This document shows, piece after piece, positions 59,594 to 63,086 of a stretch of 64,000 nucleotides of DNA. Each line of letters begins with the position of its first letter. Positions within the stretch are counted from its first letter, which is position 1. The DNA lies in the IMG/VR virus record IMGVR_UViG_3300027969_000041. One strand, written 5' to 3'. The stretch is from a virus. Lineage: Duplodnaviria; Caudoviricetes. The notes beneath the pieces are model-generated. The model did not search any database. It was not told the DNA's origin and saw only the letters and a list, made by a program, of their open reading frames with translations. The position numbers and the translations under genes are program-made.

Positions 59594-60199
59594 TTACATT
59601 GTAGGACCGTTACCATTTCTAAATTCAATGGAACCGCCCTCCTCTAAAATACGCTTTTTAACATCTTCAAACAATATAGGTGCAAAGTCCGGAGTTTGTT
59701 CTACACATACACAGTGATAACGAACATCATCTTCGTCACTGTATAAGATAACACCAGTTTTAGCATCTACGCCACGGGCCTTCTTCACGCGGTTAGCATG
59801 AGTGTGGCCGTGAACGTTGACACCAAAACGACCTAAGCTGTCACTATGTAATGGGATATGACTAAAAATCATTCCCTCTACAACATGATAGGCCCGTAAC
59901 TCACGAAAGTACAACCTGTACTCGTCATCACGGAAGATGTCATGGTTGCCTCGGATCAATACCTTGTCGCCGTTTAACCGGGCTAACGTAGGTAATGCTT
60001 TACGGTTAATAACAACATCGCCCAAATGGTAGACCTTGTCTGTGGGCTTGACTCTTTCGTTCCAAGCCTTGATCATAGCTTCGTCCATTTCTTCTGGACT
60101 ATCCCAAGGACGTAACTTTGTTACCCCGTCATTGCGGGTGAAGCGACATACGCCTGTGTGACCAAAGTGTGTGTCACTGACTAAAAATGTTGCTGTCAT
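59594..60199 (-). CDS. Calcineurin-like metallophosphoesterase
   Basis: SDTHFGH, HLGD, RGNHD, SHIP, HGHTH. Confidence 0.92.
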   Translation of the reverse strand: MTATFLVSDTHFGHTGVCRFTRNDGVTKLRPWDSPEEMDEAMIKAWNERVKPTDKVYHLGDVVINRKALPTLARLNGDKVLIRGNHDIFRDDEYRLYFRELRAYHVVEGMIFSHIPLHSDSLGRFGVNVHGHTHANRVKKARGVDAKTGVILYSDEDDVRYHCVCVEQTPDFAPILFEDVKKRILEEGGSIEFRNGNGPTM

Positions 60200-60440: not shown

Positions 60441-60469
60441 ATTATAGCACAATTTTACCAGTTTGTCAA
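60441..60469 (-). promoter_or_regulatory. sigma70 promoter
   Basis: TTGACA-17-TATAAT; spacer AACTGGTAAAAT resembles that of the 61253 promoter. Confidence 0.85.
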
Positions 60470-60930
60470 TAGGTATACCAAATTTCTGTAAAACCTTCTT
60501 CTTCAGTGGGCATTTCAAACCCTGCAATCATACTAGCAATAACATGGTCCGGGATATCCTTACCTGGGCGGCTAAACATTCGGCGAACAAGTTCTTTATG
60601 CTCAGGAGTTTCAAATACCACAGCAATGTGTTCATAGTCGGGTAACATACGAAACTTTTTCTTACGGCTCGCAATAGTTGTACTGGTTTGATCCCAAATG
60701 ATATCGCGTTTTAATTCACGGGCCGCAATAACTTCTTTGGCCATTAAGTCTACAGCAGTGGGCATAAAATCTACAAACACCTCTGAGTAAGTTTTACCTA
60801 CCTCTTTGGCGTAAATTTCCACCCACTTGTCTGTACTAATTTTTGCACAAGGTAGAGCCCAATCTTGATTGTCTACCCATGTGCTCTTACCAGAACACGG
60901 CACCCCGACTAATTGATAACATTTTGGCAT
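60466..60930 (-). CDS. P-loop kinase (AAA_33 / polynucleotide kinase-like)
   Basis: LVGVPCSGKST, IWDQT, R...L, R..R. Confidence 0.85.
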   Translation of the reverse strand: MPKCYQLVGVPCSGKSTWVDNQDWALPCAKISTDKWVEIYAKEVGKTYSEVFVDFMPTAVDLMAKEVIAARELKRDIIWDQTSTTIASRKKKFRMLPDYEHIAVVFETPEHKELVRRMFSRPGKDIPDHVIASMIAGFEMPTEEEGFTEIWYTY

Positions 60931-61252: not shown

Positions 61253-61281
61253 ATTATAATATCATTTTACCACTTTGTCAA
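61253..61281 (-). promoter_or_regulatory. sigma70 promoter fused to TAAATA core
   Basis: TTGACA-17-TATAAT-TAAATA. Confidence 0.85.
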
Positions 61282-61292
61282 GTAATTAAACG

Positions 61293-61340
61293 CCAAAAGA
61301 AAAACCCCACCGTAGAACTATATTACTAGAGGGCGAGGCC
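61293..61340 (-). terminator. Probable terminator of the tRNA/ncRNA transcript
   Basis: GC-rich CTCGCC/GGTGGG stem followed by TTTTTCTTTT. Confidence 0.5.
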
Positions 61341-61345
61341 GTGTT

Positions 61346-61419
61346 TGGAGCGGGTACCGAGAATCGAACTCGGAAATAAACCTTGGCAAGGTTTCAGGTT
61401 ACCTTTACATCATACCCGC
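61346..61419 (-). tRNA. tRNA-Gly(GCC)
   Basis: Cloverleaf GCGGGTA/TACCCGC, anticodon loop TTGCCAA, TTCGA, encoded CCA. Confidence 0.9.
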
Positions 61420-61427
61420 TTAGGTAT

Positions 61428-61503
61428 TGGTTGCGGGGGAAGGATTCGAACCTCCGTCTTCTAGGTTATGAGCCTAACAGTCTGACCACTGACGTACCCC
61501 GCG
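61428..61503 (-). tRNA. Initiator-type tRNA-Met(CAT)
   Basis: C1:A72 mismatch, purine11:pyrimidine24, loop CTCATAA, encoded CCA. Confidence 0.88.
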
Positions 61504-61510
61504 ATAATCT

Positions 61511-61586
61511 TGGTGGAGATGGTCAGGATCGAACTGACTACCTACTGCTTGCAAAGCAGCCGCTCTCCCAAATGAGCTACACCCCC
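61511..61586 (-). tRNA. tRNA-Ala(TGC)
   Basis: G3:U70 pair, anticodon TGC, encoded CCA. Confidence 0.93.
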
Positions 61587-61590
61587 AAAT

Positions 61591-61953
61591 CATATTGAAA
61601 CACACTAACTACCTTGGTATGTACTCAAGTTCAATGAACCGCTACGACCCTATCTTTAATGTGCTTCAATATGCTCTGCATCCCCCGGCGGTAATTATAG
61701 AGTATCAAGATATGACGCTATCATACCCATCACACACTCCTTCCACCCGCTTCCCGACAGGGACCGTTCTCGCATTGCTAGCGGCCTTTGGGTTTAAAGA
61801 CTACCACCCGTAGCTGTCACGCTACTTCTCATCCTGTGGGTCACAGTATCCGGAGACACCCGGAACGTTAGGGTGGGCTGGCCCCATAACGGGATACCAC
61901 TTAGCTTGGTCTATCTTATGCATTTACAACCAAGCACCCAAATCTCTTACATT
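61591..61953 (-). ncRNA. Large structured non-coding RNA (context resembles GOLLD-type phage RNAs; family not confirmed)
   Basis: At least 8 hairpins, a 17-bp terminal stem with 2 G-U pairs, GC-rich against AT-rich flanks, own TTGACA-17-TATAAT promoter, no convincing ORF. Confidence 0.72.
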
Positions 61954-61959
61954 ATCAAT

Positions 61960-61988
61960 ATTATAGTATCAACTTTGATTACTGTCAA
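61960..61988 (-). promoter_or_regulatory. Perfect-consensus sigma70 promoter for ncRNA-tRNA(Ala, fMet, Gly)
   Basis: TTGACA-17-TATAAT. Confidence 0.88.
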
Positions 61989-62004
61989 TACATTTTGGCT
62001 AAAT

Positions 62005-62082
62005 TGGTCGGAGTAGTAGGATTCGAACCTACAACCTCCTGGTCCCAAACCAGATGCGCTAACCAGACTGCGCTACACCCCC
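62005..62082 (-). tRNA. tRNA-Pro(TGG), second atypical copy (G1:G72 mismatch; overlaps CDS end)
   Basis: 3' two-thirds nearly identical to 62691..62767; 5' strand GGGGGTG is identical to tRNA-Ala. Confidence 0.72.
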
Positions 62083-62673
62083 AAATAAAATATTTTTTGC
62101 ATCATCAAAATACATTGCACCCGGATTTATTACTCGAAGTGTCAATACCATTCTATCATTTAATGAATTGTTATCAAAATCATGAAACATATCTGTATTA
62201 AACAAAATAACTTCGCCTTGTCTTGCTACCATTGATTTTAATGGTGTATGTTTATCTTTAATAAATCCCTTTACTTCTCTAGACCACCAGTTACCTATAC
62301 CGCCTAACGCCTCTATAGGATAATTTTTTAATTCTTCATCGCTATACCAACTAGTTACGCATTTATCATCTAAGATTTTAACTGTATAATTGATACTGAA
62401 TCTGTGATCTGGTCCGTCCTTGTGTGGCTTATAATAAAATCCTGGTTGAGTTACAAACAACGACACACGATTTTTATTAAAATTAAATAAATTGGTCATA
62501 CCAGTGTTATCTAAAATTTGTTCAGCGTGATGTTCTAGATGTTTATGATGTGTAAATTTATTAGGAAATGTTTTTCCTTCTATAAATTTTAAACAATCAT
62601 TTATTACTTTTTCTATTCCGTTGTGAGTGAACCGTATGTAATAAGGACTACAATCTTCTATAATAGTAAACAT
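62059..62673 (-). CDS. 2OG-Fe(II)/cupin-type dioxygenase-like protein
   Basis: Start reassigned to MFTIIED (AAGGA RBS); YKPHKDG, FSINY, MFHDF, RMVLTLR; stop lies inside tRNA-Pro copy 2. Confidence 0.78.
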   Translation of the reverse strand: MFTIIEDCSPYYIRFTHNGIEKVINDCLKFIEGKTFPNKFTHHKHLEHHAEQILDNTGMTNLFNFNKNRVSLFVTQPGFYYKPHKDGPDHRFSINYTVKILDDKCVTSWYSDEELKNYPIEALGGIGNWWSREVKGFIKDKHTPLKSMVARQGEVILFNTDMFHDFDNNSLNDRMVLTLRVINPGAMYFDDAKNILFGGVAQSG

Positions 62674-62690: not shown

Positions 62691-62767
62691 TGGTCGGAGT
62701 AGTAGGATTCGAACCTACGACCTCCTGGTCCCAAACCAGGCGCACTACCAGGCTGTGCTACACTCCG
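62691..62767 (-). tRNA. tRNA-Pro(TGG)
   Basis: C1-G72, A73, loop TTTGGGA, encoded CCA. Confidence 0.93.
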
Positions 62768-62855: not shown

Positions 62856-63086
62856 TTATTTAATTCTCTTTATATATTCATGGTCCAATTTGCCTGTTTG
62901 AAATTCAAGCAATGCAGACACTGGAGCATTCAATTGCTCAGATCTTTCTTGATGCCTATGTTGGCGACCAAGTTCCCTAGCTCTGGCAGCAGCCATAATT
63001 ACTAGATCAAATCTATTGCCCCCTGCATTTTGGACGCATTGTTCTATGTCAAGACTTGGACCACGACTTAATGTTTTAAATGACAT
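62856..63086 (-). CDS. rpoZ: RNA polymerase omega subunit-like protein
   Basis: NRFDLVIMAAARAREL and PVSALLEF..GKL match the omega pattern. Confidence 0.82.
   Translation of the reverse strand: MSFKTLSRGPSLDIEQCVQNAGGNRFDLVIMAAARARELGRQHRHQERSEQLNAPVSALLEFQTGKLDHEYIKRIK

Follow-up and report, generated by a model that had tools for sequence, protein, structure and literature searches.

A conserved, compactly knotted RNA embedded in the tRNA arrays of uncultivated large aquatic phages

The 64,000-nt stretch of DNA analyzed here (hereinafter the window) is part of the IMG/VR virus record IMGVR_UViG_3300027969_000041, a member of the Caudoviricetes (Duplodnaviria), and it carries an array of phage transfer RNA (tRNA) genes into which a GC-rich, non-coding segment is set. 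A sequence-only reading of this segment (61591-61988) had proposed a single ornate RNA of about 360 nt that is transcribed from a promoter of its own and is either a short variant of the large phage RNA GOLLD or the representative of a new class. Comparative analysis shows that the segment is not one unit but consists of three modules that can be separated from each other, all encoded on the minus strand. The middle module, which we denote the core (61669-61870), is a conserved structured RNA of about 200 nt that is defined by a covariance model and by extensive covariation and belongs to a family absent from Rfam 15; as far as this can be tested, it is a new class.

All features of the locus discussed here are encoded on the minus strand. 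Upstream of the segment lies a gene for tRNA-Pro(UGG) (62005-62082; detected, like the other tRNAs, with both ARAGORN and Rfam), and next to it a sigma70-type consensus promoter, TTGACA-17-TATAAT (61960-61988), which matches the consensus at 12 of 12 positions, exactly as originally described. The promoter is followed by a leader module, a small Y-shaped RNA recognized by its fold and by near-identical copies elsewhere (61874-61953), then by the core and by a 3′ hairpin module, identified from a consensus fold and blastn searches (61587-61676), that shares approximately 7 nt with the tail of the core. Downstream of the modules are the genes for tRNA-Ala(UGC), tRNA-Met(CAU), and tRNA-Gly(GCC) (61346-61586) and, by fold and sequence, a GC-rich terminator-like hairpin that leads into a run of U (61296-61340). 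The tRNA-Ala gene itself occupies positions 61511-61586, and the flagged element stops 4-5 nt short of it, in agreement with the distance of 4 nt given at the outset. The promoter probably starts a transcript that spans the leader, the core, the hairpin, and the tRNAs, and the terminator-like hairpin is the probable end of the transcription unit. The approximately 365 nt between the promoter and tRNA-Ala contain no credible open reading frame (ORF), the sole minus-strand ORF being 33 aa long, and their GC content reaches 0.55 compared to about 0.30-0.38 in the flanks, so that the description of the segment as non-coding and GC-enriched stands. The minus strand folds with a free energy of −123.5 kcal/mol (z-score of −2.57 relative to shuffled sequences), whereas the plus strand (z-score of −1.21) does no better than the shuffles.

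The modular organization is apparent from the comparison of this segment to its relatives because the modules turn up independently in other phages. Pairwise similarity (72-97%) is limited to positions 61876-61587 and, in many contigs, to 61876-61667. The leader consists of a short closing stem (61936-61940/61874-61878), the hairpin GCUUGGU/ACCAAGC (61904-61935), and a second small hairpin. It is near-identical in six other loci (L028, L116, L133, L075, L094, and L090), following a tRNA in three of these and the same promoter in two (L133 and L094, at the same distance from the leader), and most of the copies have a GCCA end; the majority of the core-bearing loci lack it. The GCUUGGU/ACCAAGC helix, which had been counted among the helices of the single RNA, does fold but belongs to this separate module, and covariation is uninformative here because the leader relatives are too much alike. 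The 3′ hairpin, in its consensus fold, has a closing stem of 19-21 base pairs around a small branched interior. Thus, the 17-bp stem previously noticed at 61657-61673/61591-61607 is real, and its G-U pairs are replaced by A-U or G-C in relatives, with changes on one side only. Among the 149 loci gathered by the time of the blastn comparison, the 3′ hairpin was found in 43, and in 42 of these it directly follows the core; moreover, in L130 (1198-1287, plus strand) it stands alone between two tRNAs, approximately 770 nt upstream of the core of that contig, and is therefore an independent unit. Elsewhere, a tRNA begins within 10 nt after the core in 36% of the contexts. The leader and the 3′ hairpin are optional accessory modules that probably function in processing or stability.

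The core family was collected starting from a 19-mer in the middle of the region, which matched 52 IMG/VR contigs, and was extended by two scans of viral contigs with exact or gapped motifs, one scan of metagenome contigs, and, finally, a covariance model denoted R1 (205 positions, 47 base pairs), against which the core of the window scores 249 bits (E ∼ 1e-75). Altogether, the core is present in at least 232 viral and metagenome loci that include at least 174 distinct full-length contexts and at least 160 distinct sequences, with lengths from 160 to 268 nt across 160 of the latter. Covariation was assessed in two non-overlapping sets. In set A2 (77 distinct sequences), changes on both sides were observed for 26 of the 47 pairs, 99.0% of the cells are paired, and the covariation score is 0.30, compared with 34-52% and 0.02-0.04 when the partner is slid by 1-3 columns; in set A4 (86 distinct sequences), the corresponding values are 34 of 47 pairs, 98.2%, and 0.51, compared with 35-48% and 0.04-0.06 for the slid controls. 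None of 500 shuffles matched the observed value on any of the covariation measures. The A2 and A4 alignments were fitted to the model, which favors the model; in the first alignment, made with plain MAFFT, 21 compensatory pairs were already present.

The secondary structure, as derived from RNAalifold and the covariance model, is described below in positions (idx) of the 205-nt core, the window coordinate being 61874 minus idx. Inside a weak closing helix P1 (idx 7-9/107-109), five short hairpins follow each other. In P2 (61849-61864; idx 10-14/21-25), UCCGG pairs with CCGGA and all 5 pairs show compensatory changes; P3 (61834-61846; idx 28-32/36-40) combines a covarying CUGUG/CACAG stem with an invariant GACCC loop; and in P4 (61810-61825; idx 49-53/60-64), GUAGC pairs with GCUAC with compensatory changes in all 4 pairs. 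A single strand, GGGUGGU (61803-61809), from which only 2 of 155 sequences deviate, separates P4 from P5 (61784-61801; idx 73-78/85-90), in which 3-4 of the 5 pairs are compensatory and the loop contains an invariant ACC. P6 (61771-61783; idx 91-93/101-103) is a 3-bp stem, the inner C-G pair of which is replaced by U-A, with the 7-nt loop UAGCAAU; the hairpin previously seen near 61770-61782 accordingly exists, but its loop is not a GCAA tetraloop. The remainder of the core forms a long arm (61680-61764) with invariant GU and GGAA bulges and an invariant internal loop in which GUGGAA faces AUAAUUA. The arm is built of P7 (idx 110-115/189-194; all 6 pairs compensatory), P8 (idx 118-119/187-188 and 124-127/183-186; one pair is seen as C-G, U-A, and A-U), P9 (idx 134-139/170-175; 3 pairs compensatory), and the variable tip P10 (61709-61727; idx 147-153/159-165; GGUAUGA/UCAUAUC). 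P10 is missing in one clade, resulting in a short form of about 175 nt, and is some 30 nt larger in others, and some relatives contain an insert of about 56 nt before P5. The conserved 3′ tail, GCAGAGCAUAU, occupies positions 61669-61679. With the exception of the leader helix, the short helices initially picked out by eye (UCCGG/CCGGA, CUGUG/CACAG, GUAGC/GCUAC, GUCUUU/AAAGGC, and GGUAUGA/UCAUAUC) all show compensatory changes in relatives. Two alternative pairings were considered and ruled out: a local hairpin, CCC-UGUC-GGG, gives way to the long-range, fully compensatory P7, and a long-range helix GGUGGU(AG)/(UU)ACCGCC is contradicted by the nested GCGG/CCGC pairing, which covaries (C-G, U-A, A-U), as well as by the pairing of GGGU with the P3 loop.

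Several contacts in the core, computed from 155 merged sequences, are not nested. The P2 and P4 loops form a kissing contact: they are complementary in three versions, UGUC/GACA, UAUC/GAUA, and AACG/CGUU, and the pair between idx 17 and 58 is G-C in 101 sequences, A-U in 35, and G-U in 8. The ACCC of the P3 loop is complementary to GGGU (61806-61809; idx 65-68), with one double change to ACAC/GUGU (L089) for which a close relative (L146) contains the single-change intermediate. The ACC of the P5 loop faces GGU (idx 69-71), and given that neither side ever varies, we only infer this pairing. The pairs proposed for the GGGUGGU strand are canonical in 153-155 of the 155 sequences, and this nearly invariant strand is apparently held between the hairpin loops of P3 and P5. 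In addition, the last U of the P6 loop (U100) covaries with A107 (U-A in 135 sequences, C-G in 19), and idx 64 and 80 co-vary as C/A in 112 sequences, A/U in 39, and U/A in 4. The second GGGUGG of the core falls partly in the covarying P8 and partly in the invariant internal loop. The long-range pairing of CCACCC (61871-61876) with either of the two GGGUGG motifs that had been proposed from the window sequence does not survive this analysis: both motifs are engaged as described, and CCACCC is not conserved, its place in other loci being taken by the CCA end of a tRNA or by A-rich sequence.

No reading frame is maintained in the family. In no frame does the share of the 160 members that stay open across 90% or more of their length exceed 19%, and the lengths are spread about evenly over the three residue classes modulo 3. 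The compensatory changes and the strand-specific G-U pairs indicate that selection acts on the RNA. A search of all 4,227 models of Rfam 15 at gathering score detected only tRNAs in the whole window and in four related loci; at E ≤ 10, the search of 61500-62100 adds only two sub-threshold chance matches inside tRNA-Ala, and two divergent core members match nothing. In particular, at this permissive threshold, the core is not matched by the GOLLD, ROOL, or T-box models or by the bacterial, archaeal, and minimal models of RNase P RNA (the conserved P4 sequence motifs of RNase P RNA are also absent by eye), nor do any of the Rfam models of group I and group II introns or of self-cleaving ribozymes (HDV-like, that is, hepatitis delta virus-like, including theta, hammerhead, twister, hatchet, pistol, and glmS) match it. 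ARAGORN finds only tRNAs in the window and no transfer-messenger RNA (tmRNA), the 15.5-bit hit of the tmRNA_permuted model being sub-threshold and located inside tRNA-Ala. The initial impression that the element is not a tmRNA, an RNase P RNA, or an intron is borne out by these searches, whereas its interpretation as a short GOLLD-like variant is not supported, the conserved unit being about 200 rather than 360 nt long. Among 50,697 GenBank phage records, blastn (word size 11; E ≤ 1e-5 and E ≤ 10) produced only 19-nt chance matches, and an exact search of bacterial and archaeal species genomes with the conserved 19-mer yielded 10 short chance matches, mostly in Streptomyces, with no wider similarity. 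A full-text literature search revealed no description of this RNA, which may be an unnamed entry in the catalogue of approximately 8,500 candidate RNAs from IMG/VR (PMC10690425). Of the two original proposals, it is the new class that holds within the searches made here. Resemblances of short motifs to signal recognition particle RNA, RNase P RNA, ribosomal RNA (GTPase center and sarcin-ricin loop), and k-turns were noticed by eye only and were rejected, having no model support.

The carriers of the core are uncultivated large aquatic phages; some of the core-bearing records are titled marine metagenome, and, of four near-complete phage genomes of 330-525 kb, those of 330-350 kb contain a single copy each and the one of 525 kb contains two. 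The genomic setting is highly consistent. There are tRNAs within 2 kb of the core in 159 of the 174 contexts (91%), and all 1,474 of these are on the strand of the core, none on the opposite one. In 87 of 174 contexts, at most 3 nt separate the start of the core from the 3′ terminus of a tRNA, the upstream tRNA being mostly Tyr, Ser(GCU), or Asp, and a tRNA, mostly Cys or Ala, lies no more than 10 nt downstream in 62. In contrast to what is expected of group I or group II introns, the core stands between complete tRNA genes and is not inserted in a host gene. The conservation of the core exceeds, on average, that of the neighboring tRNAs: between pairs of contigs, the average identity is 0.79-0.92 for the core compared to 0.71-0.80 for tRNAs with the same anticodon, and the core is the more identical of the two in 58-90% of the pairs. 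A perfect promoter is present within 200 nt upstream of the core in only 11 of 156 distinct contexts, so the promoter in the window, which had been taken as a property of the RNA, is real but is a feature of a lineage rather than of the family. Perfect consensus promoters are strikingly common in these arrays.

Some of the arrays contain additional copies of the core or other RNA genes. The second copy in the 525-kb genome is diverged (G001 contig 119581-119796; L149 982-1197, minus strand; 200 bits) and lies between tRNA-Ser(GCU) and tRNA-Cys, with the P9 helix compensatorily rewritten. In L023 (1406-1606, plus strand), and likewise in L041, a degenerate second copy (17.6 bits) is found right after tRNA-Ser(GCU); its first 40 nt or so, with P2 and P3, are intact and the remainder has decayed, and an intact core with a different 5′ end is located 400 nt downstream in L023. 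This configuration suggests recombination or replacement within the array. Permuted tmRNA genes, with tags that end in ...KEALAV, were detected by ARAGORN in related arrays (L004 6233-6631, plus strand; L005 5013-5467, minus strand).

By setting, the closest known RNAs are rnaC and rnaD of phage T4, GOLLD, and ROOL, and the core is homologous to none of these. The T4 RNAs (species 1 and 2) are small stable non-tRNA RNAs of the T4 tRNA operon that are co-transcribed with the tRNAs and released by tRNA processing, and the function of which is still not known. Like these, the core is encoded among phage tRNA genes and in the same orientation, without being a tRNA itself, but it lacks blastn similarity to any of the GenBank phages, including the T4-like ones, it is bigger than the T4 RNAs, has a far more knotted fold, and shows much stronger conservation, and its carriers are uncultivated. 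The HDV-like theta ribozymes, which Kienbeck and colleagues are said to have described in 2024 beside tRNAs in gut phages, are likewise structured, pseudoknotted RNAs located directly after phage tRNA genes; however, they are only about 50-60 nt long and have the HDV double-pseudoknot layout, for which no HDV-family model match is found in the core. T-box leaders contain a GGGUGG-type motif whose UGGN pairs with the NCCA end of tRNA. The core shares with them a length of about 200 nt, the GGGUGG-type motif, and a connection to tRNA-related biology, but it has no specifier or Stem I architecture and is not placed as a leader of aminoacyl-tRNA-related genes, and of its two GGGUGG motifs, the first is paired within the molecule and the second is in an internal loop that faces an invariant 7-nt strand. 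GOLLD and ROOL are ornate large RNAs of phages and prophages, often found beside tRNAs, whose structures have been studied by cryo-electron microscopy (PMC12286853). Like the core, these are complex non-coding RNAs near phage tRNA genes, with prominent loop-loop contacts and without an established function; unlike the core, they are about 580 nt (ROOL) to 800 nt (GOLLD) long, with another helix layout. We rate the core as a new family within a known general kind, the structured orphan RNAs that reside in the tRNA loci of phages.

Taking all this together, the reading that we favor, with somewhat better than even confidence, is that the core is a compact, knotted, trans-acting RNA that is co-transcribed with the phage tRNAs and freed by the tRNA-processing enzymes. 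The molecule would consist of the five hairpins P2-P6, stapled together by the P2-P4 kissing contact, by the binding of the GGGUGGU strand to the P3 loop and, presumably, to the P5 loop, and by the U100-A107 pair, and continued by the P7-P10 arm. It would be transcribed together with the tRNAs, in the window from the promoter at 61988 to the terminator-like hairpin near 61300, and in most of the phages from array promoters located further upstream. RNase P cleavage at the 5′ end of the next tRNA, together with trimming of the 3′ end of the preceding one, could release the core, which would then act in trans as a folded RNA, a protein partner, or a catalyst. Because of its placement in the arrays and its conservation, the target is probably a tRNA or, more generally, translation-related RNA metabolism in the infected cell. 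Several observations weigh against this reading. Blastn against the GenBank phages reveals no cultured carrier; neither a protein partner nor a target was identified; and the closing helix P1 is weak, with 3 pairs that are formed in 89-95% of the sequences and with A107 pairing better with U100. Furthermore, tRNAs are absent from the 2 kb around the core in about 9% of the contexts. In L131 (8790-9018, minus strand) and L065 (7373-7600, plus strand), which belong to a clade with no tRNAs within this distance, a minimal, P10-less core follows a stop codon and precedes a small gene, from which it is separated by a U7 run. Release by tRNA processing is therefore not universal, and in these contexts a role of the core in cis is possible.

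Among the alternative interpretations, the one with the most substance, which we nevertheless consider unlikely, is that the core is a self-cleaving ribozyme. Cleavage at its 5′ terminus, or close to it, would detach the core from the preceding tRNA and so define the CCA end of the latter, in the manner reported for HDV-like theta ribozymes next to tRNAs in gut phages. Such an activity would fit the compact, multiply pseudoknotted fold with its many invariant unpaired bases as well as the close abutment to tRNA CCA ends in half of the contexts; however, spacing of 0-3 nt is ordinary for neighboring tRNAs in these arrays, so that the abutment is not diagnostic, none of the self-cleaving families in Rfam matches, and the bases 1-6 that precede P1 are only moderately conserved, with the window copy differing there. 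The recurrence near the arrays of a P-loop kinase and a metallophosphoesterase, which might heal 5′-OH and cyclic-phosphate ends, could be construed in favor of cleavage, although the link is conjectural. A cis-acting sensor, that is, a riboswitch or attenuator that controls read-through into downstream tRNAs or genes, is improbable. In its information content and its invariant internal loops, the core resembles a typical aptamer, the conserved AGAGCA of the tail could base-pair with the 3′ strand of P9, a U-rich run (at least 4 U in 6) follows the tail in 50 of 122 distinct cases, and in L065 and L131 the core lies directly upstream of a gene. Nevertheless, changes in the 3′ strand of P9 are compensated within P9 and not in the tail, so the alternative helix has not been preserved; a U-run is missing from over half of the tails, and in many cases a tRNA begins 2-5 nt further on; the downstream content is varied (different tRNAs, the hairpin module, or genes); and no known riboswitch class matches. 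A terminator/antiterminator switch that uses the tail was rejected on the same grounds, namely that covariation does not preserve it and the U-runs are inconsistent.

A slightly smaller chance still can be given to the possibility that the core binds tRNA 3′ ends in a T-box-like manner, UGGA to NCCA, or forms RNA-only multimers via the P2 and P4 loops, much as kissing loops act between molecules in the ROOL and GOLLD cages. The loop-loop covariation is equally compatible with intra- and intermolecular pairing, the core adjoins tRNAs, and its internal-loop GGGUGGA resembles the T-box bulge sequence; on the other side of the ledger, the T-box model fails to match, the first GGGUGGU is already engaged in intramolecular pairing, and the UGGA loop, unlike the T-box bulge, faces the invariant 7-nt strand. 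That the core is a diverged or shortened version of a known large RNA, such as GOLLD, ROOL, RNase P RNA, tmRNA, or a group I intron, is very improbable: only the setting speaks for it, GOLLD and ROOL being often located beside tRNAs in phages or prophages (PMC12286853), whereas neither the window copy nor the two divergent members match any Rfam model, ARAGORN detects no tmRNA at the locus, and the conserved unit is 160-268 nt long. Least credible of all is the view that, instead of encoding an RNA, the element functions as a small ORF, a promoter, or a recombination site. A TATAAT does occur inside the invariant CUAUAAUUACC, and in many members an antisense frame runs uninterrupted through much of the sequence, but neither the open-frame statistics nor the distribution of lengths modulo 3 is that of a coding sequence, and the compensatory changes and strand-specific G-U pairs are those of an RNA; the internal TATAAT, also considered as a DNA promoter, was rejected given that it has no −35 partner, the sequence where one would fall being variable or absent. 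Finally, it is conceivable, if rather doubtful, that the core represents a new catalytic or self-assembling class of RNA specific to large aquatic phages. If so, it would be a ribozyme that acts on the tRNA-array transcript or on the tRNAs, or would form defined multimers via the P2-P4 loops, and would fill a gap, on the RNA side, in the translation-related toolkit of giant phages.

The neighborhood of the array in the window includes several genes of interest in their own right. Directly past the terminator-like hairpin, a second TTGACA-17-TATAAT promoter (61253-61281, minus strand; again 12 of 12 matches) stands ahead of small ORFs. Within the tRNA array, a 76-aa gene (62856-63086, minus strand) matches the RNA polymerase omega/Rpb6 family (PF01192; 28 bits with a cut-off of 26); homologs of this RpoZ-like protein, with 35-67% identity, are found near the arrays in 34 related loci, and a phage-encoded protein of this type is unusual. 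Just downstream of the tRNA cluster lie genes for a metallophosphoesterase (201 aa; 59594-60199, minus strand) and an AAA_33 P-loop kinase (154 aa; 60466-60930, minus strand), which recur in 38 and 12 related loci, respectively, and whose resemblance to an RNA end-healing pair is at this stage conjecture. The metallophosphoesterase, the RpoZ-like protein, and the kinase were considered as linked partners of the core and rejected: the same genes are also found in L001, whose 12.6 kb analyzed contain no core, and therefore mark the phage group rather than the RNA. Two tRNA-Pro(UGG) genes (62005-62082 and 62691-62767, minus strand) bracket a gene of about 200 aa with a weak match to Asp/Asn beta-hydroxylase, a 2-oxoglutarate oxygenase-like protein. 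Elsewhere in the window, the phage encodes a clamp loader, a ClpB-like protease, and a collagen-like fiber; a blastn search of the GenBank phages with a 7.9-kb flank query matched only tRNAs and identified no close relative of this phage.

Large phages carry big tRNA arrays, tmRNAs, and translation-related genes, and the non-tRNA RNAs within these arrays are almost unstudied. For the annotation of such regions, the modularity of what appeared to be a single 360-nt RNA is of direct relevance. The dense, knotted architecture of the core is usual only in ribozymes, riboswitch aptamers, or the cores of ribonucleoproteins, and at about 200 nt, or about 175 nt without P10, the molecule is short enough for direct biochemistry and structural work. 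Its activity, once found, could reveal a new RNA-based step in the processing or use of phage tRNAs or, alternatively, a new class of ribozymes or RNA assemblies.

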